From an uncultured Alphaproteobacteria bacterium (GTDB taxonomy: Bacteria > Pseudomonadota > Alphaproteobacteria > CAVTAV01): 64,000 bases of DNA. Made by a program: the position numbers and the translations under genes. Of the stretch, positions 28,242-62,293 are shown one piece after another. The stretch's first letter is position 1; each line of letters starts with the position of its first letter. The stretch is from assembly GCA_963821875.1 (NCBI GenBank), contig CAWGFE010000002.1, positions 3,014,021 through 3,078,020 of the forward strand, given 5' to 3'. The notes beneath the pieces are model-generated. The model saw only the letters and a program-made list of their open reading frames with translations, did not search any database and had not been told where the DNA came from.

Positions 28242-28245
28242 GGCG

Positions 28246-32759: not shown

Positions 32760-33866
32760 TCACGATGTAAAGGGCAAGAATTCCATGCCTAAGGCCTGCG
32801 CGACGGCTTGATGAGCGATGTGACCGTCGTAGATGTTGAGGCCGCTGCCGAGATGCTTGTCCTGCGACATCGCTTGTCTCGTCCCAAGCTCCGCCAGCGC
32901 CCGTATGTGTGGCAATGTGGCATTTGTAAGCGCGACAGTGGACGTGCGAGCAAATGCACCCGGCATATTGGTGACGCAATAATGGACGATCCCATCGACC
33001 TCGAAAGTGGGGTCGGCATGCGTCGTCGGTCGGCTTGTCTCGAAGCAACCGCCCTGATCGATCGAAATGTCGACCATGACCGACCCCTTCCTCATATGTC
33101 CGAGCATGTTCCTCGTGACGAGCTTCGGAGCGGCAGCACCCGCAATAAGCACGGCGCCGATGACCAGATCGGCATTCGCAACCAGTCTTTCGATGGTCTC
33201 TGCCGTCGCGTATTCCGTCTTTAGTCGGGATCCGAAGATCGCCGCGATTTCGCGCAGCCGTTTCGTCGACCGGTCGACAACTGTCACGTCTGCTGTCAAT
33301 CCGACCGCCATCTCCGCGGCATGGCTTCCCGCCACTCCACCGCCAAGGACGACCACTCGTCCCGGCGACACTCCCGGAACGCCGCCCAATAGAACACCGG
33401 ATCCACCGAAGGCCTTCTGAAGGCACATAGCGCCGACTTGGACCGACATCCGGCCCGCAACCTCGCTCATTGGCGTCAACAGCGGCAACGAACCGTCGGA
33501 AGCTGTCACAGTTTCATAGGCAATGGCCGTCACACCCGATTGCAACAAGGCTTGCACCAGGTCCGGAGCGGCGGCCAAGTGAAGATAGGTGAAGAGAGTT
33601 TGGTCGGCGCGCAAAAATTTACATTCTCCGAGTTGTGGCTCTTTCACTTTGATGATCAGGTCGGCTCGATCAAAGACGTCTTCAGCGTATTCCAGAAGCT
33701 GCGCTCCCGCAGCTTCATACATGGCGTCGCTGAAGCCCACACCTGCACCCGCGTCGCGTTGAACAAAGACGTCGTGGCCCGCGTCGATCAGCTCGCGCAC
33801 GCCGGAAGGAACCATACCAACACGATACTCGTGAACCTTTATTTCCTTTGGAATTCCCACGCGCAT
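32760..33866 (-). CDS. ald: alanine dehydrogenase
   Basis: [18 protein letters not shown]-terminus, a [11 protein letters not shown] motif, and AlaDH/PNT family blocks. Confidence 0.9.
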
Positions 33867-34063
33867 TGCTTGTTTCACTGTCCTTGTTACTTCTAACCAA
33901 ACATAGGGATCCGTAACATCCCTGTCGTTTTACAGCGTCAATTTTCCGAGAACGCCGGATAGCCTGCTTCCCCGTCGATGACGGTCGTCGGAACCTTGGT
34001 TTTGTCGAAAAAAAGCCGGGGCCAGGGCACTCACGAAGAGGCCCCGGTCCGCGGTTAACGGAG

Positions 34064-36445
34064 TCAATACCTGTAGATCGCGGTGAGACCGACAGTGCGG
34101 GGCCGGAAAGTTGTTCGCTGATAGAGAATTACCGGGCCCGGCGGAGTGCTCTGCGACAGAATCGTGTGCGAATTGAGAAGATTGTTGACAAAGATGGAAA
34201 GGTCGACGTCCGACAGTTTTGTACCGATTCGAGCCGACAGAAGATTCGTTTCCGGAAGCAGGAATAGGTTGCTCGGATTGAAGGTCCCATTTGTCGGATT
34301 GGTCCCTGGCGTTATGCCTGACTGACCGCTTTGGTACTGATAATCGACTCGGGCGAAGCTGTCGTGATCGCCAAAGGCCGTGAAATTGTACTGTGCGGAA
34401 AATGCGCCGGTCCACGGTGAACCTGGAATGTGATCACCTTTGGTGACGAGATTGGTCGTCGCGGCTGGACCTCCCTGAACAGTCTGATCGAACTTCGCGT
34501 TCGTGTATCCGAATGAAAGCGAAATGACGAGATCGTCCACCGGTTCGACTTCCACCTGAAAGTCGACGCCCTTACTGGTAGCCGACCCCAAATTCGTGAC
34601 AAAGGTGAAGCCGCAGGAGTTGAGCGCGACTTGCTGCTGAATATTTCCCCAGTCGACATAGAAGGCACTTGAGCTGACCCGCAAACGTCCTCCAGCGAAT
34701 GAATTTTTCGATCCGACTTCGTAGCTCCACACATGATCCGAGCTATAGAGTTGAGGGGCCGCAGGCAGACCGAGGCTGGCAAGTTGCCCTCCGCAAGGCA
34801 AGCCGACCCGTGGATTATATCCTCCAATCCGGTACCCCTTGGCGACGCTGGCATAGACCATGTTGTCCGCATCGATTTTATAGGAAATGCCGCCCTTCGG
34901 CGTAATCGGGCTCTCTTTTTGCGACCCCGAATCGGCAACGTCCGGACCGACGACCGGCCCTCGATATTTGGCCTGAGCGTCGACGGTCGTTCTGGCCACC
35001 CGAATGCCCGCCGTTAGCGTGAGCTTATCGGTGACTTTGAGATCGGCCTGGCCGTACCCGGCGATCTGCTCGTCAGTCGCTTCGATCGGATCGGCGACGA
35101 AAGTGTATAGCCCATCGACGAGTCCTTGCCCGAAGAACGCGTTGAACGGAATCCCTGTATTCGCCTGAAACAGCGCCGGCAGGAACGTATCCTGCACGAA
35201 CTGACGAGCACTCTGATGGGCGTGCGTAAAGAATCCGCCAATCACCCACGTCAGGCGCGCGTCGTCGTTGGCGGATTGGAAGCGCACCTCTTGCGTCCAA
35301 TTCTTTTGAACATTGTACTGATTAGTCGGCGCGTAGAAGCCGGCGGGAAAGAACGCATTCGCTGCCCAGATTCCAGCTTCAAAGGCGGAATAGTCGTTGA
35401 TCGAGTGGTTATGGCGATCGAAATAGGACGTGTTCGACACAACGTCGACTCCGCCCAAATGCAGTTCGATCTTGAGGGACGGCAGCACGAACTTGTCTTT
35501 GCTAACGGCAGCCAGCGAGTTCCCGTTATTGAATTTGCCGTTGGACGGATCGGAAAGGACGGCCCAATAACTTGGTGTGTCGTTCAGACGAAGGTCCTGA
35601 TAGTAGATCGATGGCGTAATAGAGAGATTTTCGCTGGGAGCGAAAGTGAGGGCCGCCTTTAGGACGATCGAGTTTTGCCAGTTCGAATTGTTGTCCAGAG
35701 TATTTGTCGGCGCGTGAGTCGTGCGATCCCAGTCGACTCGATCAACCCAACCGCCATCTCTCCGATACCAGCCGCTGATACGGAAGCCAACTTTGTCCTG
35801 TACGATTGGCGCGCCGATCGCGGCGCCAGCTTCATAGCTGGGGTCACCACTTTCCGTGTAGCCAAGCTCCGAGCGCGCATAGGCTGAGAACTTATCGAGG
35901 TTCGGCTGCGGCGTTATGAACCGTACAGTACCGCCTTCCGACCCTGCGCCAAACAGCGTACCCTGAGGCCCGCGCAGAACCTCGACGCGCTCAACATCAA
36001 AGACTTCCGGAAAACTGTTGAAGGCGCTGTATCCGAGGGAACGCGACTGTATCGGTGTATCGTCGATATAAATGCCGGTCGTAGACGACCCAGCAGTCGA
36101 CGAAATGCCTCGGATCGCAATGTTTGACGCCAAGCCGTTTCGTGCGTCCGCTCTCGCAAACGAAATCCCGGGCGTTAGACGAGCCAGATCATCGATCTTG
36201 CGCACGCCTTGCATATCCATCCTCGCCTGACTGAAGGCACTCACGCTGATAGGAACGTTGGCCAGACTTTCACTGCGCCGTTGAGCGGTCACCATCACCT
36301 CTGGCAGGGCCCCAACTTCGGCGACCGTAGATTGAGCCGCATCTTCGGCGGCAGAAGCTCGCGCCAAAGGAAGACATGCGGATATAGCAAGCACAGATAC
36401 GGCACCCCAAGCACCGATAGCATTTCGTTCGGCTGACCAGCTCAT
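34064..36445 (-). CDS. TonB-dependent receptor
   Basis: Start MSWSAERN.. with a GGGAGG RBS, signal peptide, a plug domain (EVMVTAQRRSESLANVPISVSAF) and a C-terminal ...AIYRY. Confidence 0.9.
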   Translation of the reverse strand: MSWSAERNAIGAWGAVSVLAISACLPLARASAAEDAAQSTVAEVGALPEVMVTAQRRSESLANVPISVSAFSQARMDMQGVRKIDDLARLTPGISFARADARNGLASNIAIRGISSTAGSSTTGIYIDDTPIQSRSLGYSAFNSFPEVFDVERVEVLRGPQGTLFGAGSEGGTVRFITPQPNLDKFSAYARSELGYTESGDPSYEAGAAIGAPIVQDKVGFRISGWYRRDGGWVDRVDWDRTTHAPTNTLDNNSNWQNSIVLKAALTFAPSENLSITPSIYYQDLRLNDTPSYWAVLSDPSNGKFNNGNSLAAVSKDKFVLPSLKIELHLGGVDVVSNTSYFDRHNHSINDYSAFEAGIWAANAFFPAGFYAPTNQYNVQKNWTQEVRFQSANDDARLTWVIGGFFTHAHQSARQFVQDTFLPALFQANTGIPFNAFFGQGLVDGLYTFVADPIEATDEQIAGYGQADLKVTDKLTLTAGIRVARTTVDAQAKYRGPVVGPDVADSGSQKESPITPKGGISYKIDADNMVYASVAKGYRIGGYNPRVGLPCGGQLASLGLPAAPQLYSSDHVWSYEVGSKNSFAGGRLRVSSSAFYVDWGNIQQQVALNSCGFTFVTNLGSATSKGVDFQVEVEPVDDLVISLSFGYTNAKFDQTVQGGPAATTNLVTKGDHIPGSPWTGAFSAQYNFTAFGDHDSFARVDYQYQSGQSGITPGTNPTNGTFNPSNLFLLPETNLLSARIGTKLSDVDLSIFVNNLLNSHTILSQSTPPGPVILYQRTTFRPRTVGLTAIYRY

Positions 36446-36825
36446 TTGACGACCTCCCGACAAATCCCTGATATCCCAACCACAGCCGGTTGACCCGCGG
36501 TTGTTTGGTCTTCGCGACCAGTAATTGCGCCGCACCACACCCAGCATGAGAGGCTGTAGCGTAGAAGCGCTACAGATCGACTGTGCGACGCATTGTTTAC
36601 GAGTTTGCCTGAGCTATCGCGCAGGTTCTTGCTTGCGCTGGCCAATAACTTGACCGGCTTTGCCAATCGAACGCGGGCCGAGCCACCTTCTCCGAAACCC
36701 GGCTTTCAAGGGAATTTAGCGCTCTGAATCGAGACTTAAGTCCGGAGCTTTGCTCGCGTCACGCTGAACGGCGCCGTATTGATCATACGGGTCATGTCAG
36801 CTGCTTCTGATGAGTAGCTGACGGC

Positions 36826-37612
36826 TCATGCCTGCCGGGATCCAAGGCGCTTTGAGATCTGCTCCGCAACTTGCAGAACCTCCCTAACGAGACTGCCTTT
36901 CAGCGACAGGTCGAAGCTCCCTGTGTAGCCCAACGCAATCAAGGCCATTGCCATCATCCCGTTGTAGTCGAATACAGGCGCTGCTATTCCGCTGATGCCC
37001 GGGATGAAATCGCTCGTTCTCGCAATACCGTGACGTCGCGTCTGCTGCACCCAATGGTCCACTTCCTCGCGGGTCAAGGGTTGAAGACCGAGCCGCACAT
37101 TGTCCGTCAATTCGTCCGCCAGCAGCCTGGCAGTCATTTCATGGGGCAAGAAAGCCAGAAACGCGCCACCCGTCGCGGAGCGCGTGAGAGGCAAGACCGA
37201 CCCCAACCGGAGGCTCGCTGAAACCGGCGTATCGGACCCAAACCATCGAACGATCGTAGGTCCCTTATTCCCCCAGACGGCAACCGCAACTGTCTGTTGG
37301 AGCGACTCGCCAAGATCTCTGAGGATTGGTGTCGCCTGCTGGACCGGCTCCATTCGTGCCAAAGCGCTCAAGCCCAAATGCAAGGAGAATTCCCCAAGGT
37401 CATATCGTCCGGTCGCCGGATCTTGCTCCACGAGTTCCCATCCTCATGAAGCTCACCAGATATCGGTGGGCCTTCGCGGCCGGCATTTTGGCGGCCGCCG
37501 CAAGATCGCGGAGCATCATGGCATGCGAGGACTCAACTAACGCTCTGAGCAGCGCGGCGCCGACCTCGATCGACTGGACACCCTTACGGCTCTTCTCGGT
37601 CTCGTCACTCAT
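36826..37612 (-). pseudogene. IclR-family transcriptional regulator, interrupted by a single-base frameshift near 37427-37431
   Basis: The HTH N-terminus (37400..37612: GVQSIEVGAALLRAL...AHRYLVSFMRMG) and the effector domain (36826..37431) lie in different frames. The expected junction MRMG-LVEQDPATGRY is broken by one extra base. Confidence 0.65.
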
Positions 37613-37696
37613 GACGGCGGCATCCCATGTTGACAGAAGCGATCAGAGAATTTACGCTTTGTGAAATACATTTTATAATACGTAATTCCATGGCAG

Positions 37697-39241
37697 GTGA
37701 CCATGATGTCGGCAAAAGGGGAATGCAGCATGCGAGAGAATAGCTTGACCGGCAATGACAAGCATTCGGCAGGAGCGCGAAAGGGTGCACAAATCTTGCA
37801 GCGGCTCCGCGACCGGCCTCCGTCGATCTGGTACCGGGGCGAGCAGGTCCGCGATGTAACGGCGCATCCGGCTCTCGAAGGCGGCGTGCAGACGCTTGCG
37901 GAACTTTACGACCTTCAATGGCGGAACCCTGACGTTTCTCTCTACAAATCGCCCACGACCGGCGACTTGGTTGCGCGGTCTTTCATGATGCCACGAACTC
38001 ATGAAGAACTGCACAGCGTCACGAAGGCGATGAAGGTATGGGCGAATTACGCCTTTGGCATGATGGGGCGCGTGCCCGACTATATTAATCGGGCAATGAC
38101 GGGCTATGCCGCGGGGGCGCCGTTTCTCGCGGAAGCCGACCCTCGATTCGGCGAGAACGCCACCCGCTATTACGAGTATCTGCGAGAAAACGACCTTTGC
38201 TTGACCCACACACTGATCCCTCCCCAGGCCAATCGCGCAGCGAGCTCGGCGAACCAAGCCGATCCGTTTCTGGCCGCGCGCGTCAAGGAGGAAACCGACG
38301 CCGGGATCGTCGTGCGTGGGTGCCGGATGCTGGCGACCCTTCCGATCTCGGACGAAATCATGGTCTTCCCGTCCACTCTCCTGAAGAGTCCCGAAGAGGA
38401 CGCACCTTATGCCTTCGGCTTCGTTATCCCGAACGACACCCCCGGCTTGCGTTTCATATGCCGCGAGAGTGTCGACTACGGACGGTCCCATTTCGATCAT
38501 CCGCTCGGATCGCGGTTCGAAGAGATGGACGCGGTCGTTGTCTTTGATGACGTCTTCGTCCCTTGGGAGAACATATTCCTGTATCGCGATATAGATCGCT
38601 GCAATCAGGCCTATGCACGAACCGGCGCGGTCGTGCACATGACACATCAGGTTCTCGTCAAAAACATCGCGAAGACGGAATTCCTGCTGGGTCTGGCTTC
38701 GTTGCTGGTCAATACGATCGGCGTGGAGGTCTTCCAACATATCCAAGAAAAGCTTGCGGAGATCTGGGTCAATCTCGAAACGATGAAAGCGCTTTTGCGC
38801 GCCTCGGAAGCGGATGCCACTCTGGACGAATGGGGCGTGATGCGGCCCGCCTGGAATCCACTCGACGCCGCACGCAATCTGTACCCGAAATTGTATCCCC
38901 GAATGGTCGAGATCATTCAACAGATCGGGGCTAGCGGTCTGGTCGCGATGCCGACCGAGGCGGATCTCAAGGGTCCGCTCGTGGACGACATCAAGAAGTA
39001 TTATCAGGCGGCCCGCGCTGACGCCTTCGACCGGATCCCGATCTTCCGTCTTGCCTGGGACACGGCGCTCTCGGCCTTCGGGTCTCGTCAGGTACTGTAC
39101 GAACGCTTCTTCTTTGGGGATCCCGTTCGGATGGCCGGCGCTCTGGTGGCGGGACATGGCGCCGAAATAAAAGAGCTTGCTGGTAGAGTCCAAGAGTTCG
39201 TCAAAACGACGAAAGACGAGGCTTTCTCAGAGACCCCTTAA
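37697..39241 (+). CDS. hpaB: 4-hydroxyphenylacetate 3-monooxygenase oxygenase component family (HpaB-like)
   Basis: 514 aa; IWYRGEQVRDVTAHPAL near the N-terminus plus other HpaB family blocks. Divergent from the IclR gene. The start may instead be at 37730. Confidence 0.85.
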   Translation: MTMMSAKGECSMRENSLTGNDKHSAGARKGAQILQRLRDRPPSIWYRGEQVRDVTAHPALEGGVQTLAELYDLQWRNPDVSLYKSPTTGDLVARSFMMPRTHEELHSVTKAMKVWANYAFGMMGRVPDYINRAMTGYAAGAPFLAEADPRFGENATRYYEYLRENDLCLTHTLIPPQANRAASSANQADPFLAARVKEETDAGIVVRGCRMLATLPISDEIMVFPSTLLKSPEEDAPYAFGFVIPNDTPGLRFICRESVDYGRSHFDHPLGSRFEEMDAVVVFDDVFVPWENIFLYRDIDRCNQAYARTGAVVHMTHQVLVKNIAKTEFLLGLASLLVNTIGVEVFQHIQEKLAEIWVNLETMKALLRASEADATLDEWGVMRPAWNPLDAARNLYPKLYPRMVEIIQQIGASGLVAMPTEADLKGPLVDDIKKYYQAARADAFDRIPIFRLAWDTALSAFGSRQVLYERFFFGDPVRMAGALVAGHGAEIKELAGRVQEFVKTTKDEAFSETP

Positions 39242-39333
39242 CCGCGCCGCCGAAATTGAGCGACACCCTTTCGACAGGCGTCAGTCAGTATCATCGAGAT
39301 ATCCTAAGACGACGAAGACGAAGGTGCTGCCCA

Positions 39334-39891
39334 ATGACATTGAGTCAACGAGAGTTCCGAACAGCGATCGGACACTTTGCAACCGGCGTCGCCGTCATAG
39401 CCGCACAAGTCGGCGACGAGGTTCACGCTATGACGGCAAACGCGGTGTCGTCTCTCTCACTCGATCCTATGCTCATCCTCTTCTGCCCGAGCAAAGGGGC
39501 TCGCTTCGCTCAGTTCTTGCCGGAACTGACGGCATTCAGCATCAACATTCTGCGCGAAGAACAGCAGGCGTTGTCGAACTTCTTCGCGGGGGCATGGCGA
39601 GGCACACAGGCGCCGGCCTTCCGCTTTGTCCGTACGGCGGCCGGACCGCGCCTGGAAGGTGCTTTAGCCTCGCTGAACTGCGAACTCCTTGAGACTCTCG
39701 AAGGCGGGGATCATCTGGTCGTAATCGGACGTGTAACAGCGACACATATCGGCACGAGCCCGCGTCAACCCCTGATCTTCTTCAAAGGGCAGTATCGATC
39801 AATGAGTCTTGCGGAAGAGTCGCCGGCTCCCGATCTAGCCAATGTCAACGATGAGCCGGCGCATATATTTTACATGGGCACTCAACGTTAG
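39334..39891 (+). CDS. hpaC: flavin reductase (HpaC-like)
   Basis: FRTAIGHFATGVAVIA...MTANAVSSLSLDPML flavin reductase-like domain. The start is chosen at MTLSQREF; the track ORF begins at 39256. Confidence 0.8.
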   Translation: MTLSQREFRTAIGHFATGVAVIAAQVGDEVHAMTANAVSSLSLDPMLILFCPSKGARFAQFLPELTAFSINILREEQQALSNFFAGAWRGTQAPAFRFVRTAAGPRLEGALASLNCELLETLEGGDHLVVIGRVTATHIGTSPRQPLIFFKGQYRSMSLAEESPAPDLANVNDEPAHIFYMGTQR

Positions 39892-39979: not shown

Positions 39980-41575
39980 ATGGAGGCGCGAATGAGAGCT
40001 CTGATCGCATCAGTCTTGGCCCTGACATCGATGGCTTCGCTCGTTCCCACTCGGGCATCGGCAGCCGAACCGGCGCGGCACGCGGTCACCCCTTCGGTGG
40101 TTCCGCTGCCTCGGATTACGGGGCCCATTCCCGTTACAAAGACCTCCTGGCCGTTCAATGCCGCAGATCACTCCGTGACCAAGCGAGATCTGTCGACGGA
40201 AGGCTACGAGGAGGAGGAATACTTTATGCACGGCCAGGCCAATGTCTACGACTGGCCTGCAATCAACAAGCTGGAGAGTTTCGCGCGGGGCCCCTACACC
40301 ACGCGAATCCTGGTCCGCCGCCCAAAGGATCCGTCCAAATTCAGCGGTACGGTGATCGTGGAAGCCCTCAATCCGTCGCTCCGGTACGACGCGCCCATCA
40401 TGTGGATGGAATCTCAGGATTACTTCATTCACCAAGGCGATGTTTATGTCGGCGTAACGGTAAAGCCAGTTGCCGTTAAGTCTCTCAAGCTGTTCGATCC
40501 GGCGCGATACGCGGCCCTCTCCTTCAAGAACCCGCTTCCGCCGTCCGATACATGTCCACAATCGCAATTGCCCGCCGCGCCGGGCGGATTGCCGCCCGAA
40601 TCAAGTCCGGCCACGGAAAACGGCTTGATATGGGATATTCTGAGCCAAACCGGCGCGCTTGTCAGAAGCGGGTCGCGCACAAACCCTCTGCATGATCTGA
40701 AGGTAACGCAAGTCTACCTCACGGGGGATTCTCAGAGCGGCGCCTTTGTTCTCATCTATGCAAACGCGATCCATCCATTCTCCAAGCTCCCTGACGGACA
40801 CCCGGTATACGATGGTTATCTGACATCGTCGGCCGGTGGGCCGGGAGTCCCCGTCAACCAGTGCTCACCGGGCGTTGGGCCCGGCGACGCCCGCCTGGCC
40901 ATGCAGCCCCGTAGTGTCCCTATCATCAAGATCATCAATCAGACTGATCTTGGATATCTGAACCGGCGGCCGGACAGCGACACCTATCCCGATCTCTATC
41001 GCGGATATGAGATCGCGGGTGCCGCCCATGTGCATGACTGGGTTCTCCGCTGGGGTGCCGCGGACGCAGATGTTGCTAAGACCGGCGCGGGCGGTTTCCT
41101 GTCAAACGCTAAGTGCCAGCAACGAAACGAACACGGCAATGAGTTTCCGACCCAATACATTCTGGACGGCGCTTTCGCCAATCTGGAGCGCTGGTCAAGA
41201 GATGGTGTCGCACCGCCGCGAGCTGCACCATTAAAGGTAGATGACATCCAGCATGCCCGAGCGTCTCTGGAACTCGACAAGTTCGGCAACGCGAAGGGGG
41301 GAGTCCGCACGCCTTATGTGGATGTGCCACTGGTCCGCTACGGTGCCTATATGGACGGACCGGGGATTTGCGAATTGTGGGGCTATCAGGTACGCCTGTC
41401 GCCGGAAACCCTCAAAAAGTTATATCCTGATCGGGCAAGCTATGTCTCGAAGGTTACGGCGGCGACCCGCAGGATCCTCATGGAGCACTGGATTACGAAG
41501 CGAGACGCTGGAAAGATCGTGAAGGAGGCCGAAGGCGTTCGGCTACCGCAGATCTGGTCCGGAAGCGGCCACTAG
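39980..41575 (+). CDS. secreted hypothetical protein with a putative alpha/beta-hydrolase domain (paralog 1)
   Basis: Signal peptide, a conserved RYTTRILVRRPKDPSKF block, a candidate nucleophile elbow TGDSQSG, and GNAKGGVRTPYVDVP. 531 aa. Confidence 0.6.
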   Translation: MEARMRALIASVLALTSMASLVPTRASAAEPARHAVTPSVVPLPRITGPIPVTKTSWPFNAADHSVTKRDLSTEGYEEEEYFMHGQANVYDWPAINKLESFARGPYTTRILVRRPKDPSKFSGTVIVEALNPSLRYDAPIMWMESQDYFIHQGDVYVGVTVKPVAVKSLKLFDPARYAALSFKNPLPPSDTCPQSQLPAAPGGLPPESSPATENGLIWDILSQTGALVRSGSRTNPLHDLKVTQVYLTGDSQSGAFVLIYANAIHPFSKLPDGHPVYDGYLTSSAGGPGVPVNQCSPGVGPGDARLAMQPRSVPIIKIINQTDLGYLNRRPDSDTYPDLYRGYEIAGAAHVHDWVLRWGAADADVAKTGAGGFLSNAKCQQRNEHGNEFPTQYILDGAFANLERWSRDGVAPPRAAPLKVDDIQHARASLELDKFGNAKGGVRTPYVDVPLVRYGAYMDGPGICELWGYQVRLSPETLKKLYPDRASYVSKVTAATRRILMEHWITKRDAGKIVKEAEGVRLPQIWSGSGH

Positions 41576-41613
41576 ATCTAAGCAAGCGCAGTCAAAATTT
41601 CGGGGGACGATCA

Positions 41614-43137
41614 ATGCGACGACTACTTGGCTTCTTGCCATTGGCGATCCTTGTGATGTCGGCATCGTCAAACGCTGAACAGCCGTCCCTGCCCGACGTC
41701 CGCGGTCCCATCGCGGAGACGGCCTCGTCGCACGCCTTCCTGTCATCCCGTCGTCTGAAACAGCCGGTCGATCTTTCGAAATACGGTTACGTCGAGAAAG
41801 AATACCTGATCAGCGGGGATGCCCGCGTGTTCGGATGGCCCGTGAAAGACCATCCGCCGGCGCTTGCAACCGGGCGCTACACAACACGGATTCTTGTCAG
41901 ACGCCCCAAGGACGATTCCAAATTCAATGGCACGGCGATCGTGGAGCCGATGAACCCGTCCTCGCCGGTCGATCTTCCGATCATGTGGGCCGAATCCTAT
42001 CGTCAGTTCATGGCCGACGGATACGCATGGATCGGCATTACGATCAAGCCGAATACGATCAAGGCCCTGAAGAAATTCGATCCGGCGCGTTATGGCACTC
42101 TTGGAATGCCACACCCGGCGGGCGGCCCCACCTGCAAGGTCGGCGACATAAATTCCTGGGCGCAACCGACAACCCCGGATGACGAGACCGGCCTGGCCTG
42201 GGATATCATCAGTGAGATCGGCGCTCTGCTGAAGTCGGGATCGGATCGAAATCCGCTAAGCCGAGCGGCAGATCGATTGTATATGACGGGTCAATCCCAA
42301 ACGGCCGGCTATGCGCGGACCTACGCGACGTTCTTTGGCCTTATCGAGAAAGGCCCGGAGGGACACCCGCTATACAACGGCTATCTCTATAGCGGCAGCC
42401 CACCATGGCAGGTTCCGATCAATCAATGCGTAAAGGGCTTTTCTCCTGATGATCCTCGATTGCTCACCGGCCCGGCCGGCGTTCCTGTCATCGAGCTCTT
42501 CACTCAGGGCGACATAGGCTCGAACATAGCGACCCGACGGCCCGACTCCGACGATGCCCCGGATCTGTTCCGTCGCTACGAAGTCGCCGGCGCTGCCCAT
42601 GTCGATCCATGGGAACAAAAATCCTTTGCCTCGGAGCACGACATGCTTCGCGCGAGCGGACAAGCTGACCCGATAGCTAAGGCGAATTGCGAGCCAAAGG
42701 ATGTCACTCCGTCGGACTTCCCGACGCGCTATGTCTTCGACGCTGCCTGGCGCCTTCTCGACGAGTGGGTACGCAAGGGCGTGCCGCCCCCGCACGCGCC
42801 ATCGCTGAAGCTAAAGCCTCGGGCCGCCAGCCATTTTCGCCCGGACCAATCTTTCGTAGTCGACCGGTATGGAAACGCCAAAGGGGGCGTGCGAACGCCT
42901 TATGTGGACGTCCCGACGGCCCGATGGATCGGTGCCAAGACGCCAGCGTTCGAGTGCATGTTCGAGGGATACAAATACGAGTTCGATCGGTCGGCGCTCA
43001 AGAAACTGTATCCAACGCACCACGCGTACGTGATCAAAGTCCGCCGGGATGCAGGTAATCTCGTGAAGCAAAGATGGCTGACGCCAACTGATGCGTCCAC
43101 AATTATCGATGAAGCTAACCGAGCGAATGTCCCATAG
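41614..43137 (+). CDS. secreted hypothetical protein with a putative alpha/beta-hydrolase domain (paralog 2)
   Basis: Colinear with paralog 1 (RYTTRILVRRPKDDSKF, TGQSQTAG, YGNAKGGVRTPYVDVP). 507 aa. Confidence 0.6.
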   Translation: MRRLLGFLPLAILVMSASSNAEQPSLPDVRGPIAETASSHAFLSSRRLKQPVDLSKYGYVEKEYLISGDARVFGWPVKDHPPALATGRYTTRILVRRPKDDSKFNGTAIVEPMNPSSPVDLPIMWAESYRQFMADGYAWIGITIKPNTIKALKKFDPARYGTLGMPHPAGGPTCKVGDINSWAQPTTPDDETGLAWDIISEIGALLKSGSDRNPLSRAADRLYMTGQSQTAGYARTYATFFGLIEKGPEGHPLYNGYLYSGSPPWQVPINQCVKGFSPDDPRLLTGPAGVPVIELFTQGDIGSNIATRRPDSDDAPDLFRRYEVAGAAHVDPWEQKSFASEHDMLRASGQADPIAKANCEPKDVTPSDFPTRYVFDAAWRLLDEWVRKGVPPPHAPSLKLKPRAASHFRPDQSFVVDRYGNAKGGVRTPYVDVPTARWIGAKTPAFECMFEGYKYEFDRSALKKLYPTHHAYVIKVRRDAGNLVKQRWLTPTDASTIIDEANRANVP

Positions 43138-43179
43138 GCGAGCCCGGCTTGGAATTTCTTAGGTGTAAGGGGGAACTCG

Positions 43180-44634
43180 ATGTCTACACTTGCTTTTAGG
43201 TCGGCCACGGAGCTGGCTCGTATGGTTCGCGCGCGCGAGATCGGCTGTGTCGAATTGCTCGACTATTTCGTTGGCCGGATGGAGAGCTACAATCCCGCCG
43301 TCAACGCAATTATCGTGCAGGATCTGGATGCGGCCCGCGGCCGAGCAGTGGCAGCTGATGAAGCGCTCTCCCGAGGGGAAGACGTCGGCCCGCTGTTCGG
43401 CGTTCCAATGACCGTCAAAGAGTCGTTCAACCTTACCGGCGCTCCGACGACGTGGGGCTTCCCGGAATTCAAGGACAACATCGCCACATCCAATGCGGTG
43501 GCCGTCGACCGGTTGCTCGGCGCCGGCGCAAATGTCTTCGGCAAGACGAACGTACCGCCAGGGCTGATGGACGGCCAAAGCAATAACGAGATCTATGGCC
43601 GTACAAACAACCCGTGGGATCTTTCGCGAACGCCGGGCGGGTCTTCCGGCGGGGCAGCGGCCGCGTTGGCATCCGGCATGACCGGCCTCGAGTTCGGCAG
43701 CGACATTGCGTCGTCGATCCGTAATCCGGCCCATTACTGCGGCGTCTTCGGTCATAAGCCGACATGGGGCGTCTGCCCCCAGCGCGGCCATATGCTGGTG
43801 GATACGCATCAACCCACCGACATCGGCGTCGTCGGCCCGCTGGCGCGCAGCGTTTCGGATCTCGAGTTGGCGTTCTCGGTGGTCGCCGGTCCTTCCGAGC
43901 GCGAGGCGCTCGGCTACTCCCTGGCGCTTCGGCCGGCGCGAAAAACGGAACTGAAAGACTTTCGCATTGCTCTGGTGTGCAACGACAGCTTCGCCGAAGT
44001 CGACCAGACCGTCTCGGATCAGCTGACCAAGCTTGGCGACTTCCTCGAAGGCGAAGGCGTACAGGTCTCGCGTGACGATCGCCCTCGGTTCGAAAGCGAG
44101 GAACTCTATATCCTTTATATGATCCTTCTCCGGGCCGCCGCGGCAGGAAGCGTGACGGACGAGGAGTTCTCTCAAAACCTTCAGCATGCAAAAGGAGCAA
44201 GCCGCGCCACGCGGGATATCGCCAAGGCGAATGCCTATGGCGTAACGCTCTCGCATCGCGACTGGCTGCGGCTCGATGAAGAGCGGCACCGATATCGGAT
44301 CAAGTGGATCGAGTTCTTCGAGCGCTTCGACGCGCTGCTCTGCCCCCCACTCTCGACACCGGCGTTTCCTCACAAGACCGGGTCGCCCCAAGGCCGGACG
44401 CTCACCGTTAACGGCAAGGAGGTGCCGTTTGAAAACCAGCTGTTCTGGGCCGGCTATGGCGCTGCATTCTATCTGCCCGCGACCGTCGCCCCGATCGGTC
44501 TCAGTCCTGATGGCCTTCCGATCGGCGTGCAGATCATCGGCAACCAATACGATGATTACACATGCCTCAAGTTTGCCGGGCTTTTGGAAGAAAAGTACCG
44601 CAGATTCGCTCCGCCGCCCGGTTACGGGGACTAG
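43180..44634 (+). CDS. amidase-signature family amidase
   Basis: The GGSSGG Gly/Ser-rich amidase-signature stretch and TNNPWDLSRTPGGSSGGAAA. 484 aa with no signal peptide. Only 42 bp after paralog 2. Confidence 0.9.
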   Translation: MSTLAFRSATELARMVRAREIGCVELLDYFVGRMESYNPAVNAIIVQDLDAARGRAVAADEALSRGEDVGPLFGVPMTVKESFNLTGAPTTWGFPEFKDNIATSNAVAVDRLLGAGANVFGKTNVPPGLMDGQSNNEIYGRTNNPWDLSRTPGGSSGGAAAALASGMTGLEFGSDIASSIRNPAHYCGVFGHKPTWGVCPQRGHMLVDTHQPTDIGVVGPLARSVSDLELAFSVVAGPSEREALGYSLALRPARKTELKDFRIALVCNDSFAEVDQTVSDQLTKLGDFLEGEGVQVSRDDRPRFESEELYILYMILLRAAAAGSVTDEEFSQNLQHAKGASRATRDIAKANAYGVTLSHRDWLRLDEERHRYRIKWIEFFERFDALLCPPLSTPAFPHKTGSPQGRTLTVNGKEVPFENQLFWAGYGAAFYLPATVAPIGLSPDGLPIGVQIIGNQYDDYTCLKFAGLLEEKYRRFAPPPGYGD

Positions 44635-44663
44635 GGTCTGTCATCAATTAGAGATTACAGTGA

Positions 44664-44719
44664 CAGTGCACTTAATTGACGAATGTCATCGACGCCAAGA
44701 TTAAATGCACTGTCACCGT
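44664..44719. repeat. inverted repeat TACAGTGACAGTGCACTTAAT ... ATTAAATGCACTGTCACCGTA
   Basis: Read in the sequence; the arms are ~21 bp with 2 mismatches. A third copy of the motif TGCACTGTCACCGT lies at 11206-11219. Confidence 0.6.
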
Positions 44720-44800
44720 AATCCCTTAGACAAGAATGTGTCGAGGCAATGCCGACCGCATAGTAGTAGCTTGGATAATCAGCTTTTTATGAGGACGTAG

Positions 44801-46432
44801 TTGATGTTGCAGAATTGGAAGCGGTTCGCAACGCTGATAGCAATCGCGGCGTCGGCGGCGAGCGTTGCGACGTTGGTCGCGGCTGACACCGGTGGTGATC
44901 CAACCGTCCGCATCGGCCCTGAGATCATACGCGGTCGACACGACGCGGTGGTGGGCGTCGATCGCTTTCTGGGTATCCCTTATGCTGCTCCTCCCGTTGG
45001 AGCGTTGCGCTGGCGCGAGCCCCAACCGTTGGCACTCAAAGCCGGGACGTTTGACGCGGGCGACTATTCGCCAAGCTGCACCCAGGTTATGAGCCCCGCT
45101 TTCAAGACCATCTTCCCGCACATTCCCCACGAGCGGTACAGTGAGGACTGTCTCTATTTGAACGTGTGGACGCCGGCGGCCAAGCCCCCGAAGCGGATGC
45201 CGGTTATCGTCTGGATTCACGGTGGCGGCTTTATGGCCGGTACTGGCTCCAGTCCGATAAATCAGGGGGCCGACTTGGCCCACAAGGGCGTGGTGGTCGT
45301 GACATTAAATTATCGCCTGGGGCCGCTTGGATTCCTCGTCCTTCCTCAGCTTGCCGCCGAATCGCCTCACCACGTGTCAGGCAATTACGGGATACTCGAT
45401 CAGATCGCCGCACTGAAGTGGGTGCGCGCGCATATCGGCGCGTTCGGCGGCGACCCCGACGATGTCACGATCATCGGCTGGTCGGCCGGCAGTGCCTCGG
45501 TCAACGCCCTTCAGGCCACGCCGCTGGCGCGCGGGTTGTTCCAGCGGGCGATCGGACACAGCGGAGCCGACATGAACCCGGGGGCCGGCATCTGGCCTGT
45601 GCGGACGGTCGCGCAAGCGAACCGGTACGGGCGCGAGTACATGAAACTGTTTGGCGCCAAATCATTGGCAGACCTGCGCGCGATCCCGGCCCAGAAGCTC
45701 GCCGACGCTCCGCCGAAATTCTGGATCCTGGAGAATGACGGTTACGTCTTCCCTGGCGAAATCCATGACATTTTCGCGAGCGGGCGCCAGACCAAGGTGC
45801 CGGTGATGGCGGGCGCGGCCGCCGACGAATCGTCGGTTCTCGGTCCCGATCAGGGCTGGGTCCATCCCCGGACGCCAGCAGAAGCAGCGGAGGCGGCAAG
45901 GCTCTACGGCCCGCCAGATCATCCCAACGGGCACGCCACGGATGATGCCGTTCTTTGGCAGGCGCGAGAATGGGTTCGGTTGAACGCCAAGTCCGGCGTT
46001 AAGAACTCCTACCTGTGGTTCACCACCCTTGCGCCACCAGCGCCACCAAAACCGGACGGCACGCCGATGGGCGCCTATCACGGCTCCGAGTTGGCGTTCG
46101 TGTTTGGAACGCAGCACCTGATAAACCTTCCCTGGACCCCGGCAGAGCATAAGGTGAGCGATACATTATCGGATTATTGGATAAATTTTGCCCGAACCGG
46201 CAATCCGAATGGCCCCGGGCTTCCGAAGTGGCCGGCTTACAGCGGCGACCAGGTCATGGAATTATCTCTTACGCCGCATGCGATCCCGCTTCCCAGAGCC
46301 GAAAGTATTCGCTTCCTAAATGCGCAATTTTCTCGTCAACGAGCCAAGGGCATAAAGGCCGCAGTGCACGCATCTGGCGAAAATTCTTCATCAGAACAAA
46401 TTCACGGAAACGATCCTAACGATCGACAATGA
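44801..46432 (+). CDS. secreted carboxylesterase type B
   Basis: An EDCLYLNVWTP block, an HGGGF oxyanion hole, nucleophile motif GWSAGS, and C-terminal HGSELAFVFG. 543 aa with a signal peptide. Confidence 0.9.
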   Translation: MMLQNWKRFATLIAIAASAASVATLVAADTGGDPTVRIGPEIIRGRHDAVVGVDRFLGIPYAAPPVGALRWREPQPLALKAGTFDAGDYSPSCTQVMSPAFKTIFPHIPHERYSEDCLYLNVWTPAAKPPKRMPVIVWIHGGGFMAGTGSSPINQGADLAHKGVVVVTLNYRLGPLGFLVLPQLAAESPHHVSGNYGILDQIAALKWVRAHIGAFGGDPDDVTIIGWSAGSASVNALQATPLARGLFQRAIGHSGADMNPGAGIWPVRTVAQANRYGREYMKLFGAKSLADLRAIPAQKLADAPPKFWILENDGYVFPGEIHDIFASGRQTKVPVMAGAAADESSVLGPDQGWVHPRTPAEAAEAARLYGPPDHPNGHATDDAVLWQAREWVRLNAKSGVKNSYLWFTTLAPPAPPKPDGTPMGAYHGSELAFVFGTQHLINLPWTPAEHKVSDTLSDYWINFARTGNPNGPGLPKWPAYSGDQVMELSLTPHAIPLPRAESIRFLNAQFSRQRAKGIKAAVHASGENSSSEQIHGNDPNDRQ

Positions 46433-46688: not shown

Positions 46689-47711
46689 CTATTCGCTCGA
46701 CAAGAGAACTCGCGCCCTTTCAAGTGTTGTCGGCTGGGCCGCCACTGCTGAGCGGGCCGCCGCGCGAAGTGCGTCCCGTTGTTCTTCGTTCAGATACTCC
46801 ACTGGAGACTTGCCATCGACGCGCGCCAGAGCGAGCACGGGCAGTAACTTGGCGGCTCGGAACTCCAGATTATCGGCGGGTTCCCAGTCGATCCTGGCGA
46901 AGTAAGCCGACGCAAGCATATTGAAAGCGGTTGTGAGCAATCCTGCCGCACCTTGTACCACACGCGCTTTGATAACGAGGTGGTTGAGGCAAAAGGCAAG
47001 ATCGAAGGCTGGATCGCCGAACCAAGCGCATTCGGCGTCGAGCAACACCGGTCCTTCAGGGCCACGAAGAATGTTCTTGGGGCTCACGTCGCCATGAACG
47101 AGCACTTTGCGCGTGGCGGCCGTAGTGGCCGCGATGCCTTCGATCGTCGCAGCCAAGTCTGGATGGGCGCGAGCAGTCGTTCTTAAATAAGGTTCAATCC
47201 GCAGGGCCTCGAAACCGTCGTTCGTAGCAAAGCCTGCCGGCAGCGTGCAATTGCGCGCGGTCGCCGAATGGATTCGCCCCACCAACGCTCCTACATCGCC
47301 GGCAAAATCGGGATCTACCCGACCGGCCATCAGTTCCGACTTCCATAGTGGGTAGCGATCGGGGGCCAGCCATGCCATCGCAAACAGGCCGCGGGCGGGG
47401 TCATGCACAATCGGCTGCGGCATTGCCCCGGGCGCAATGGCCGAGACGACCTCCATGTAAGCCCATTCCATGGCGTTGCGCCCCACCGGAGCTGTCCAGT
47501 CCGAGGCCACCTTCAGCCGGGCGAGCGCCCGCTTCACACAGAAGGCGCCGGCTTGGGTCTTGACCCTCCAGATGTCGGACGACACGCCGCCGGCGAGCGG
47601 CACCCAGTCTCCCGTCTCGTCGGGCTCGGCCAGCCCGTAATCCCGCAGGAACTCGATGAGGTCTGGCTCGGGCGTGGTCACAGTGGGGCCAGGCCGGATG
47701 CGCCACTCCAA
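46689..47711 (-). CDS. phosphotransferase (APH/ChoK-like kinase) family protein
   Basis: Kinase catalytic loop LVHGDVSPKNIL and a DAECAWFGDPAFDLA block. 340 aa. Its 5' end overlaps the enolase 3' end by 34 nt. Confidence 0.7.
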   Translation of the reverse strand: MEWRIRPGPTVTTPEPDLIEFLRDYGLAEPDETGDWVPLAGGVSSDIWRVKTQAGAFCVKRALARLKVASDWTAPVGRNAMEWAYMEVVSAIAPGAMPQPIVHDPARGLFAMAWLAPDRYPLWKSELMAGRVDPDFAGDVGALVGRIHSATARNCTLPAGFATNDGFEALRIEPYLRTTARAHPDLAATIEGIAATTAATRKVLVHGDVSPKNILRGPEGPVLLDAECAWFGDPAFDLAFCLNHLVIKARVVQGAAGLLTTAFNMLASAYFARIDWEPADNLEFRAAKLLPVLALARVDGKSPVEYLNEEQRDALRAAARSAVAAQPTTLERARVLLSSE

Positions 47712-48958
47712 GGCAGGCCTGCCTCTTCGATGCGGAGGAGTTGGTTGTACTTCGCCTGTCGCTCCGAGTTGCGAACGGAGCCGATCTTGACCTGTCCGCC
47801 AGCGACGCCGACCGCCAGATCTGCGAGGAAATCATCCTCGGTTTCGCCAGATCGCGCCGAAATCACGGTTGCATAGCCCGCAGCCCGCGCCATCCGAATG
47901 GCTGCGAGGGCACCTGATAGTGTGCCATTCTGGTTGACCTTGATAAGTGCACTGTTGGCGATGCCGGTATCGATCGCCCGCTGGATACGGTCCGGTTGTG
48001 TCGCGAACAGATCGTCTCCAACGAGCTGGATCCGAGACAGGCGCCGCGTCATCTCAGGCCAGTGTCCCCAATCCTCCTCATCAAGTCCGTCCTCAATGGA
48101 GATGATGGGATATTTTTCGACCCAACTGGCCTGCATTTCAATCATCTCAGTGGCATTGTAGGTGCGGCCCTGTCGCCGAAACACGTATCCCCCCATTCCG
48201 TCAAACAGCGAGGAGGATGCTATGTCGAGAGCGATCGCCACGTCCTTGCCGGGTTCGAGCCCCGCCTTTTCGAATGCCTCGACCATCAGGTCCAATGCTT
48301 CCTCGGACGTCTCGAAGCCCGGGGAAAGCCCTCCTTCGTCGGCGAGCAACGTCGGCAGACCGCGCACGGCGCATAGTTTCGCGGCCTGGACGCGCACTCT
48401 GCAGATCCAATCAAGCGCCTCCGAATATGAGTTTGCCCCCACCGGAATGGCGAGAAAGTCCTGGACGTCCATTCCACGTCCAGCGTGAAGACCCCCCGAT
48501 AGAATGTTGACCATCGTCAGTGGCATGCTGGGCTCCGTGCCGGCAAGCTCGGCAAAACGCCGCCAGAGGGGTTGCCGCTGCGCGAACGCACTTGCACGCA
48601 CGACCGCCAAGCTGACCGATAGAACCGCATTACCTCCCAACCGGGCGAGATTCGCCGTACCATCCAGCTCCCGCATGGCCGCGTCGATCCCCTGCTGGTC
48701 CATTGAATCGCGACCGAGAAGCAGACGAGTGATCTCGCCCTTAACGTTGGCAATCGCGCTGGAAACGCCACGCCCTTCCCACGCCGTGCCACCGTCTCGC
48801 AACTCGACCGCCTCCGCCTTGCCCGTCGATGCACCCGATGGCGCCGACGCCCGCGCCGTAACGCCGTTGGCCAGTGTTACCTCGGTCTCAACGGTGGGCC
48901 GCCCGCGGCTGTCCAGGATCTGCCTGGCGTAAATCGCGGAAATCCTGGTCGTCATCAC
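47678..48958 (-). CDS. eno: enolase (phosphopyruvate hydratase) paralog
   Basis: Canonical enolase N-terminus ISAIYARQILDSRGRPTVE and other enolase blocks. 426 aa. Confidence 0.9.
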   Translation of the reverse strand: MMTTRISAIYARQILDSRGRPTVETEVTLANGVTARASAPSGASTGKAEAVELRDGGTAWEGRGVSSAIANVKGEITRLLLGRDSMDQQGIDAAMRELDGTANLARLGGNAVLSVSLAVVRASAFAQRQPLWRRFAELAGTEPSMPLTMVNILSGGLHAGRGMDVQDFLAIPVGANSYSEALDWICRVRVQAAKLCAVRGLPTLLADEGGLSPGFETSEEALDLMVEAFEKAGLEPGKDVAIALDIASSSLFDGMGGYVFRRQGRTYNATEMIEMQASWVEKYPIISIEDGLDEEDWGHWPEMTRRLSRIQLVGDDLFATQPDRIQRAIDTGIANSALIKVNQNGTLSGALAAIRMARAAGYATVISARSGETEDDFLADLAVGVAGGQVKIGSVRNSERQAKYNQLLRIEEAGLPWSGASGLAPL

Positions 48959-49602
48959 TACAGGCCTTCCGGATGATTGCGGGGATTTTGCGGGTATTCG
49001 CCGGCGAGCACGCGGACCACTTCCTCCGCTGACCGTCTGCGCAGTTCGGCAAGCGACGCATCGGAGGAAAAGGCCACATGCGGCGTGACGATGACATCGG
49101 GCCGCTCTACAAGTGCGCGCGGCGGAGTGGGCTCGCCCTCGATCACATCTACACCTGCTCCCGAGAGGCGACCGGCTTCCAGCCCGGCAATCAGTGCCTC
49201 ATTGTCAACGAGTGGCCCCCGGCTCACGTTAATGAGGAAGCAGCCCTCTTTGACGTGGGCCAACCGTTTAGCATCGAACAGATGGCGCGTCGCATCGGTC
49301 AGCGGCGCATGCAGGATTATAACGTCGCTGGCCGCCAGCATCTCGTCTAACGGCAACAAACAAGCGGGGCCGCCATCTCGCGCGGAGGGGGAATGCGCGA
49401 GCACCGTGCAGCCAAAAGCGGCAAGCTTGGCGACTGTGGCGCGCCCGATCCGACCGAGCCCTACGACGCCCACGGTCAGGTCGGAGACCCGCCGCAACCG
49501 CGCGGCGGCAGGATTCCAGCGGCCGGCCTTCACCTCCCGATCGAAGAACACGGTATGGACTTGGGTTTGCGACAGCATCGACGGAGGCCGCGACGTTACC
49601 AA
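48958..49602 (-). pseudogene. D-isomer-specific 2-hydroxyacid dehydrogenase, N-terminally truncated
   Basis: Only the NAD-binding/C-terminal part is present (GVVGLGRIGRA, catalytic RGPLVDNEAL, HVAFSS). An in-frame stop lies 5 codons upstream of the TTG 'start', and the MFS gene begins 88 bp away. Its stop forms an ATGA overlap with the enolase start. Confidence 0.55.
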
Positions 49603-49624
49603 CGCGACGACTTTTCACCAAACG

Positions 49625-49640
49625 TTGACAGCGCTGTCCA
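49625..49640. promoter_or_regulatory. LacI-type operator half-palindrome TTGACAGCGCTGTCCA (site 1) in the MFS promoter region
   Basis: Read in the sequence, 50 bp upstream of the MFS start. One mismatch to the perfect palindrome seen at site 2. Confidence 0.6.
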
Positions 49641-49689
49641 TTCCCGTCGAGAATAGCAGGCTTGAACGGTTTGAATCGAGGGGAATGGC

Positions 49690-50991: not shown

Positions 50992-51009
50992 CTCTACGGA
51001 CAAGAGGAT

Positions 51010-57646: not shown

Positions 57647-57656
57647 AACACCCTCC

Positions 57657-62262: not shown

Positions 62263-62293
62263 CGTAAGACCTCGCTTGCCGGATCGGGCTCTA

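Follow-up and report, generated by a model that had tools for sequence, protein, structure and literature searches.

The subject of this study is a pair of tandem genes, AB10_1 and AB10_2, found in a 64-kb stretch of DNA (hereafter the window, meaning the whole of that stretch) from contig CAWGFE010000002.1 of the metagenome-assembled genome (MAG) of an uncultured Alphaproteobacteria bacterium. Their products are, by profile match, full members of PF20091 (Abhydrolase_10, 'Alpha/beta hydrolase domain'), a family that is catalogued but functionally blank. The explanation that best accounts for the evidence as a whole, to which we assign a probability of roughly 0.55, is that the two proteins are exported serine hydrolases which help to deconjugate, in the periplasm, an aromatic ester or amide that the cell has imported. 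That both are exported and active serine hydrolases appears highly probable from their sequences, and a role of the surrounding ~35-kb gene island in the catabolism of an imported aromatic conjugate stands, on its gene content, at about even odds. The two genes and the one that follows them are:

39980-41575, plus strand: AB10_1 (Abhydrolase_10 paralog 1), 531 amino acids (aa), PF20091; alternative start at ATG 39992
41614-43137, plus strand: AB10_2 (Abhydrolase_10 paralog 2), 507 aa, PF20091
43180-44634, plus strand: amidase-signature (AS) enzyme, cytoplasmic, 484 aa, full-length PF01425

In NCBI annotation these three genes are named, in order, 'alpha/beta hydrolase domain-containing protein' twice and then 'amidase', and in other assemblies AB10_1 begins at ATG 39992, which gives a product of 527 aa.

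Two paralogs of a catalogued family without assigned function

A preliminary description of this DNA had placed two paralogs of ~510-530 aa here, and the two open reading frames (ORFs) of 531 and 507 aa are indeed 41% identical over 519 columns, end to end (E = 2e-124, far beyond chance). AB10_1 matches PF20091 with E = 2.5e-127 and 425.9 bits and AB10_2 with E = 6.2e-123 and 411.3 bits, against a cutoff of 23, and both matches span profile positions 1-428 of 429. Among the blocks formerly listed as shared, GNAKGGVRTPYVDVP is exact in both proteins and the elbows TGDSQS and TGQSQT are as described, but RYTTRILVRRPKD is exact in AB10_2 only, AB10_1 reading PYTTRILVRRPKD. The opinion that the paralogs could not be placed in a family gives way to PF20091; it stands as far as function is concerned, which is uncharacterised. 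Indeed, neither protein matches any other Pfam family even at E <= 10, no NCBIfam model matches either, no PDB chain is matched by sequence or by a 50-sequence profile, and a literature search on the family name and accession returned no characterised member, curated name or paper.

The family is large, with 2,021 proteins scored at E <= 1e-5 by a word-indexed search, and 3,738 clusters (50% identity) at E <= 1e-3 or 2,025 at E <= 1e-10 by an exhaustive one. Its members come from Alpha- and Gammaproteobacteria, many Arthrobacter, Dehalococcoidia, Acidobacteriota, Verrucomicrobiota and Firmicutes, with at least one on a haloarchaeal plasmid, and all their source names are generic. Plasmid-encoded proteins resembling AB10 reach 26-30% identity at most and likewise bear generic names; a megablast of the operon against plasmids gave no match.

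The tandem duplication of the preliminary description is not a recent one, to judge from the relatives of each copy. AB10_1 has orthologues elsewhere that are 68-72% identical and AB10_2 has its own at 59-67%, so the two lineages are old. Furthermore, a second AB10 gene lies less than 10 kb away in the loci L001, L061 and L073, on the opposite strand and convergent in L001 and L073 and adjoining a tannase and a TonB receptor in L061, and a tandem pair occurs in L028. In PF20091, two or three catalytic domains or genes often stand next to one another. A single polypeptide contains two or three fused Abhydrolase_10 domains in eleven family representatives, and every complete domain keeps the catalytic triad. 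Cell-surface-anchored proteins with S-layer-homology (SLH) domains or an LPXTG anchor and two to three complete domains, triads intact, are P0140, P0155, P0163, P0226, P0222, P0162, P0236, P0156 and P0256. These multi-domain surface proteins suggest that several Abhydrolase_10 domains act together, and that their substrates are perhaps complex or polymeric.

An alpha/beta-hydrolase core with family-specific additions

The alpha/beta-hydrolase fold proposed earlier is borne out by the PF20091 match, by an AlphaFold2 (AF2) model of AB10_1 (predicted local distance difference test score, pLDDT, 92.5; predicted template-modelling score, pTM, 0.91) and by a Foldseek search of that model against the PDB, which returned alpha/beta hydrolases exclusively. 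The matches comprise IsPETase, cutinases, esterase D/S-formylglutathione hydrolase, dienelactone hydrolase, siderophore esterases and glucuronoyl esterase. Because they are only ~11% identical, with a template-modelling (TM) score normalised to the query of 0.2-0.28, AB10_1 shares the core alone with these enzymes.

With IsPETase (6ane), cutinase, dienelactone hydrolase and esterase D, this common part consists of the alpha/beta core and the nucleophile-elbow Ser (Foldseek probability ~1.0). Compared with cutinase/PETase-type hydrolases, for which the TM score is ~0.5 when normalised to the target and 0.26 when normalised to the query, ~270 residues of AB10 have no counterpart; the additions are a long N-terminal beta-hairpin (76-115), insertions and, past the catalytic His, a C-terminal domain of 170 residues. 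At the level of hidden Markov models, no relation to the cutinase, PETase or dienelactone-hydrolase families appeared in the Pfam search at E <= 10. The tannase/feruloyl-esterase (PF07519) and type-B carboxylesterase (PF00135) families resemble AB10 in size (500-550 aa), in export and in their TonB-receptor-linked loci, but neither is matched by AB10 in Pfam at E <= 10, and hhalign gives AB10 a probability of 0.16% against the L061 tannase and 0.19% against the carboxylesterase (COesterase) of the window.

Predicted catalytic machinery

The predicted triad is Ser251/Asp323/His350 in AB10_1 and Ser228/Asp300/His329 in AB10_2. In the AF2 secondary structure, Ser251 occupies the turn that joins strand 244-250 to helix 252-267, Asp323 directly follows strand 315-320 and His350 follows strand 338-345. 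In the model, these are the canonical alpha/beta-hydrolase positions, with the nucleophile at the elbow, the acid after the next-to-last strand and the His after the last. The Ser-Gln of the elbow, for which the consensus across representatives is G-[YWQD]-S-Q-[ST]-G, corresponds to S251/Q252 in AB10_1 and S228/Q229 in AB10_2.

No substitution of Ser251, Gln252 or His350 occurs in 50 sequences that are at least 41% identical, so the concern raised in the preliminary description, that the catalytic Ser might not be conserved among homologues, falls away for the AB10_1 clade. It retains some force for the family at large, for among 113 diverse PF20091 representatives the Ser, Asp/Glu and His are kept as aligned in only 73, with position 323 acidic (Asp/Glu) in 91% and His350 present in 86%. 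Some of the apparent losses are alignment shifts (e.g. G-M-S-G-G), others are genuine subfamilies in which Thr, Ala or Gly replaces the nucleophile and the His is missing, and PF20091 as a whole probably contains inactive or mechanistically different branches. Subfamilies with an elbow of the form G-x-T-[GA]-G-D or G-Y-G-x-A-G-G, in which the catalytic His is lost, are represented by P0144, P0180, P0191, P0193, P0200, P0211, P0212 and P0245 and by P0173, P0205, P0216, P0248 and P0260; these branches may be non-catalytic or use another mechanism. As for the pair studied here, the idea that one paralog is a catalytically dead partner was rejected, as the triad is kept in both and in every domain of the multi-domain relatives.

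Other positions are invariant family-wide: Arg176-Tyr177, Glu80, Arg109, R341 and the C-terminal D433..G436-N437..G440-G441-x-R443. The last of these is the most conserved motif of the family (D-x2-G-N-x2-G-G-x-R) and is located in the ~170-residue C-terminal extension, its Arg being R443 in AB10_1 and R427 in AB10_2. This extension probably caps the active site, and the invariant arginines may, judging from their conservation, bind an anionic group. AB10_2 carries an Asn where 96% of the family has Asp278.

Predicted export and disulfide bonds

Both paralogs begin with a segment that resembles a Sec signal peptide (...TRASA|AEP and ...SSNA|EQP), in agreement with the signal peptides claimed previously. 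The cysteine pattern points the same way. Each paralog has exactly four Cys, all family-conserved (192, 295, 379 and 464 in AB10_1; 174, 272, 359 and 448 in AB10_2), and across the family they are gained and lost pairwise (192+295 and 379+464): 50 members have all four, 29 lack them all, 12 have just the first pair and 9 just the second. This covariation suggests two disulfides per paralog. Moreover, a signal-like N terminus is found in 62/77 members with cysteines and in 5/31 without (Fisher p = 6e-10), and Gram-positive relatives bear SLH domains or an LPXTG anchor. From these heuristics and the covariation, the AB10 paralogs are very probably periplasmic and disulfide-bonded.

Recurrent partners of the AB10_1 clade

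The genomic context was tallied for the AB10_1 clade, delimited at 48% identity or more, in 14 distinct loci: the window, L001, L002, L003, L061, L062, L064, L066, L067, L068, L070, L071, L072 and L073, a partner being counted when within 10 kb of AB10. L003 is from Aurantiacibacter flavus DGU5 and L067 from Novosphingobium piscinae, both of them cultivable. The constant partners are an exported Amidohydro_3 metallohydrolase and a TonB-dependent receptor (TBDR). An Amidohydro_3 orthologue is present in 12 loci, adjacent on the same strand in six and overlapping AB10 by 4 bp in L070, and a TonB receptor in 11. Less regular are a LuxR/GerE regulator (6/14), an AS amidase (5/14), a second Abhydrolase_10 (4/14) and a COesterase (4/14). 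The coupling to an amidase that had been emphasised from the window is thus real in five loci, with an 8-bp overlap in L062 and a 64-bp gap in L072, but it is not the constant feature.

The arrangement takes several forms. The order MFS-LuxR-TBDR-AB10-Amidohydro_3 forms a compact array in L066, L068 and L071, while L062 has hpaB, hpaC, TBDR, Amidohydro_3, ABC, DUF3299, AB10 and the amidase all on one strand. Since the order and orientation of the partners vary between genomes, the association reflects function and not inherited synteny. A link to aromatic catabolism, already proposed for the window, is found again outside it: besides L062, the Amidohydro_3-AB10 pair of L070 adjoins the homogentisate pathway, and in L013, a Dehalococcoidia MAG, AB10 is linked to an HpaB-family gene. 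A family-wide neighbour analysis of 60 loci revealed no conserved neighbours beyond genus-level synteny (ALDH, M3 peptidase, SDR, MFS, HxlR); the greedy ORF calls in high-GC Arthrobacter loci included antisense artefacts.

Two further observations concern these partners. A trio formed by MoaF and two SDR genes travels with the Abhydrolase_10/Amidohydro_3 module in three genomes (L061, L062 and the window), and literature searches for a MoaF/tyramine/4-hydroxyphenylacetate cluster or a TonB/amidohydrolase/amidase/homoprotocatechuate cluster found nothing relevant. The Amidohydro_3 partner itself (L061:10700-12442) has as PDB relatives only 3igh and 3icj, structural-genomics 'uncharacterized metal-dependent hydrolases', and passes no NCBIfam model at cutoff.

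Gene order and the predicted operon

The pair lies immediately downstream of hpaBC, as first described, and the flanking features are:

37651-37679, plus strand: sigma-70-like promoter candidate TTTACG-17-TATAAT, in the divergent IclR/hpaB intergenic region, 10/12 consensus matches
37697-39241, plus strand: hpaB, 4-hydroxyphenylacetate 3-monooxygenase oxygenase component (Pfam HpaB_N + HpaB; NCBIfam TIGR02309 HpaB-1)
39256-39891, plus strand: flavin reductase, HpaC-like partner of HpaB (PF01613, E = 3e-35)
44650-44726, plus strand: strong hairpin, 27-nt arms, 89% complementary, 16 nt 3' of the amidase stop
44801-46432, plus strand: type-B carboxylesterase, predicted to be exported (PF00135, E = 2e-97; signal-like N terminus)

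HpaB scores 656.7 bits against TIGR02309 HpaB-1 (cutoff 480.2), that is, at equivalog level, while the HpaC-like flavin reductase is under all NCBIfam equivalog cutoffs. The same-strand gaps between hpaB, hpaC, AB10_1, AB10_2 and the amidase gene are 14, ~90, 38 and 42 bp, and a purine-rich ribosome-binding site precedes both AB10_2 and the amidase gene in the 38-bp and 42-bp spacers. From this spacing, the five genes are probably co-transcribed as one operon, of which hpaB is the probable first gene; the unit first described, made of the paralogs and the amidase, would thus hold as a part of a longer one, itself lying in the ~35-kb island. Promoter-like sites are no more numerous in the region than chance would give, and the candidate upstream of hpaB is therefore weak evidence.

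The hairpin after the amidase gene folds as RNA at -33 kcal/mol (z = -5.7 versus shuffled sequences) and probably marks the end of the transcription unit, a terminator role that we infer with caution because a U-tract is absent. It occupies the 166-bp spacer before the carboxylesterase gene, which is likely to be transcribed separately. This carboxylesterase, reported earlier as the next gene and secreted, is indeed signal-like at its N terminus, but it stands apart from the unit that ends at 44634. The same gene order is found in L069, an independent assembly of the same species that is 99.93% identical over 21.5 kb.

A 22-nt arm of the hairpin recurs once, at 11193-11214, with 3 mismatches and an exact core GTGACAGTGCA; this copy precedes the ABC-transporter gene by ~310 bp, at the upstream border of the low-GC island, and none is expected by chance. 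The repeat could be an operator, a REP/MITE-like element or an island-boundary relic. As a conserved operator it is unsupported, with zero copies in 68 loci.

The amidase

The third gene of the set encodes, as previously stated, a cytoplasmic amidase that starts 42 bp 3' of the paralogs: it matches PF01425 over its full length (322 bits) and has no signal-like N terminus, in contrast to the carboxylesterase and the Amidohydro_3 protein. It also passes the curated NCBIfam model NF004816 (592 bits, cutoff 503). Its closest solved relatives are 9je9, the urethanases UMG-SP1/2/3 (E = 1e-79 to 1e-86) and ClbL; a literature search for a paper on 9JE9 found nothing relevant. The homology to the UMG-SP urethanases and ClbL is of full length within the AS family (E = 1e-70 to 1e-91), and the amidase shows, as they do, the GGSSGG motif together with the catalytic Lys and Ser. 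The UMG-SP urethanases, promiscuous hydrolases of aryl amides and urethanes, are reported to hydrolyse urethane and amide bonds (PMC11708778). ClbL, on the other hand, is encoded in a biosynthetic operon, whereas the amidase gene here belongs to a catabolic one.

The surrounding island

The operon is embedded in a lower-GC stretch of ~11.5-46.4 kb that holds catabolic genes. The features upstream of hpaB are, towards the upstream end:

36826-37650, minus strand: IclR-family regulator (IclR_C), divergent from hpaB
34064-36547, minus strand: TonB-dependent outer-membrane receptor (Plug + TonB_dep_Rec_b-barrel)
32760-33878, minus strand: alanine dehydrogenase (TIGR00518, 498 bits, cutoff 392)
30351-32073, minus strand: Amidohydro_3 metallohydrolase, predicted to be exported; two ORFs matching profile halves 1-213 and 223-472
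28246-29781, minus strand: HpaE, 5-carboxymethyl-2-hydroxymuconate semialdehyde dehydrogenase (TIGR02299, 805.5 bits, cutoff 638)
27420-28394, minus strand: LigB-type (class III) extradiol ring-cleavage dioxygenase (PF02900; NCBIfam class III extradiol models under cutoff)
26507-27403, plus strand: DHDPS-family enzyme closest to HpaI-type aldolase (TIGR02313, 296 bits, cutoff 397)
24604-26064, plus strand: amino-acid permease (PF13520)
23203-24552, plus strand: class-III (omega) aminotransferase (PF00202; PRK07481, 802 bits, cutoff 575)
20057-22586, minus strand: MoaF + two SDR oxidoreductases, the trio recurring with AB10 in L061 and L062
11526-19190, no strand assigned: MacB-type ABC transporter (frameshifted), DUF3299, AraC regulator and second TonB receptor (16818-19190), the upstream end of the island

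HpaB-1, HpaE and alanine dehydrogenase exceed their NCBIfam equivalog cutoffs. The HpaI-like assignment is ambiguous because the dapA cutoff is passed as well. A TetR regulator is also encoded in the island, and the families at its upstream end (MacB-type ABC transporter, DUF3299, AraC and TonB receptor) are also present in L062. The GC content is 0.54-0.57 at ~10000-27000, against ~0.60-0.63 in the flanks; this dip overlaps the upstream half of the island and may reflect horizontal acquisition.

Several island genes are split by frameshifts. The Amidohydro_3 gene, when searched by tblastn with the intact L061 orthologue, switches frame at ~31255. IclR is split by a 1-bp insertion at 37435, its HTH domain continuing in another frame. 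MacB/FtsX and DUF3299 are also affected (~13300 and ~13600-14200). In L069 the Amidohydro_3 protein is intact at 573 aa and IclR at 261 aa, and over the 21.5-kb overlap of this assembly with the window the sole indel is the 1-bp insertion at 37435. Judging from the sequences, the frameshifts are likely long-read indel errors or strain-specific mutations. A decaying island, with Amidohydro_3, IclR, MacB and DUF3299 frameshifted, was therefore rejected as the default, IclR and Amidohydro_3 being intact in the 99.93%-identical L069.

Beyond the island, the 3' side (46689-59994) is occupied by an unrelated sugar block with Entner-Doudoroff genes, comprising an APH-family kinase, an enolase, a 2-hydroxyacid dehydrogenase (N-terminal domain missing), an MFS transporter, GH3, LacI, glucokinase, Edd, Pgl and G6PD. 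The window is also dense in ester hydrolases, with HSL-type esterases (1535-2653 and 2814-3866), a GDSL lipase (3895-4770), a weak PETase/PAF-AH-like protein (6213-7487) and COesterases (60697-62382 and 62294-63997). A FAD aromatic monooxygenase is encoded at 4853-6223.

A proposed route and its relation to known systems

In the route that we favour, a TonB-dependent receptor would import a conjugated aromatic compound with ester and/or amide bonds, and in the periplasm the AB10 pair, the exported Amidohydro_3 protein and the carboxylesterase would remove the conjugating groups. The products would pass the inner membrane via a permease, and the cytoplasmic amidase would cut a remaining amide. 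The omega-transaminase would then take off an amino group, with alanine dehydrogenase presumably recycling its pyruvate, and HpaBC would hydroxylate a 4-hydroxyphenylacetate-type product for ring cleavage via the homoprotocatechuate meta pathway. The order of these steps and the nature of the substrate are what we infer from the genes at hand. More tentatively, and with rather long odds, AB10 and the exported Amidohydro_3 protein would constitute an undescribed periplasmic 'deconjugase' pair for natural aromatic conjugates imported by the TonB receptor. Possible substrates of such a pair are hydroxycinnamoyl- or acyl-tyramine and 4-hydroxyphenylacetyl esters or amides from plant polyesters, e.g. 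suberin.

Two known pathways offer a comparison. With the homoprotocatechuate (hpa) pathway, the island shares HpaB-1, HpaE, a flavin reductase, a LigB-type dioxygenase and an HpaI-like aldolase; its genes here do not make up a compact hpa operon but are interspersed with hydrolases, a transaminase and TonB receptors. In the fumonisin cluster of Sphingopyxis sp. MTA144, the carboxylesterase FumD acts first and is followed by the pyruvate-dependent class-III aminotransferase FumI, which yields alanine (PMC3136697). The island parallels this hydrolase-then-transaminase logic in having a COesterase, a class-III aminotransferase and an alanine dehydrogenase. However, the COesterase of the window shows no special affinity to FumD: its PDB relatives are generic, and pNB esterase and cholinesterases are at least as close to it. 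The additional Abhydrolase_10, Amidohydro_3, amidase and ring-cleavage genes argue for a different, aromatic substrate.

Alternative readings

The alternative that best survives is that the paralogs are C-N hydrolases (alpha/beta-hydrolase-fold peptidases or amidases) instead of esterases, which would act with Amidohydro_3 and the AS amidase on a peptide-like, N-acyl-amino-acid or amine substrate taken up through the TonB receptor. We consider this somewhat unlikely. The commonest partners do cut amide bonds (Amidohydro_3 in 12/14 loci, amidase in 5/14), an M20 peptidase and beta-lactamase-family proteins are near AB10 in L064 and a gamma-glutamyltranspeptidase in L068, and the transaminase, alanine dehydrogenase and amino-acid permease of the island suit nitrogen-containing products; the family-wide invariance of R109, R176, R341 and R443 would also fit the recognition of a carboxylate. 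On the other hand, the top structural matches are esterases and cutinases, prolyl endopeptidase appearing first at rank 17, and ester hydrolases adjoin AB10 elsewhere (tannase in L061; COesterase in L003, L064 and L067). The G-[YWQD]-S-Q-[ST]-G elbow, which we take to resemble those of lipases and cutinases, also counts against a C-N hydrolase.

It is improbable that the paralogs are general-purpose secreted esterases or lipases whose place beside hpaBC and the amidase gene is incidental in a region that accumulates hydrolases. The 64-kb window does hold at least 11 hydrolase genes (three COesterases, two HSL-type esterases, the GDSL lipase, the PETase/PAF-AH-like protein, the AB10 pair, the amidase and Amidohydro_3), and most PF20091 members elsewhere are stand-alone genes. 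But the same partners recur in independent genomes despite changed order and orientation, which incidental proximity would not sustain, and some junctions are tight or overlapping (4 bp for AB10/Amidohydro_3 in L070; 8 bp for AB10/amidase in L062).

Adaptation of the cluster to man-made carbamates, polyurethane fragments or plasticiser esters, with the amidase as a urethanase and AB10 and the COesterase as polyester or carbamate esterases, is very improbable: the UMG-SP1/2/3 enzymes are among the closest solved relatives of the amidase and PET hydrolases are the top Foldseek matches of AB10_1, but the PETase likeness is limited to the shared core (query-normalised TM score 0.26, ~11% identity), the module is widespread in MAGs of diverse, apparently natural habitats and is tied to tyrosine/tyramine-type pathways, and the UMG-SP urethanases are themselves promiscuous amidases.

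A number of points weigh against the periplasmic deconjugation that we propose. The signal-peptide calls are heuristic, and the placement of the triad is taken from the order of secondary-structure elements in the AF2 model, that of the putative disulfides from cysteine covariation. HpaF, HpaG and HpaH were absent from the scanned ORFs of the window, although they may lie elsewhere in the genome, and the LigB-type dioxygenase and the HpaI-like aldolase are under their equivalog cutoffs. Neither the promoter nor the terminator scan rose above chance, and the hairpin is one without a U-tract. Finally, AB10 is usually monocistronic outside the alpha-/gammaproteobacterial clade, for instance in many Arthrobacter loci, so the context of the island may not generalise to the family.

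Significance

Among the new leads, the recurring TBDR-Abhydrolase_10-Amidohydro_3 module is of most use. Together with its relatives, the AB10 locus gives PF20091 a testable context, that of a putative exported serine hydrolase in partnership with Amidohydro_3 and a TonB receptor, upstream of dihydroxyphenylacetate ring cleavage. This context narrows the search for substrates in enzyme discovery, including that of esterases and amidases of biotechnological interest, and the paralogs are a reasonable target for such discovery rather than a surprise. More generally, the locus contributes to what is known of catabolism fed by TonB receptors in sphingomonad-like bacteria, and it challenges no established concept. 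If the reading as a deconjugase is true, working out AB10 would give a family of ~3,700 clusters its first assigned function and solved structure.

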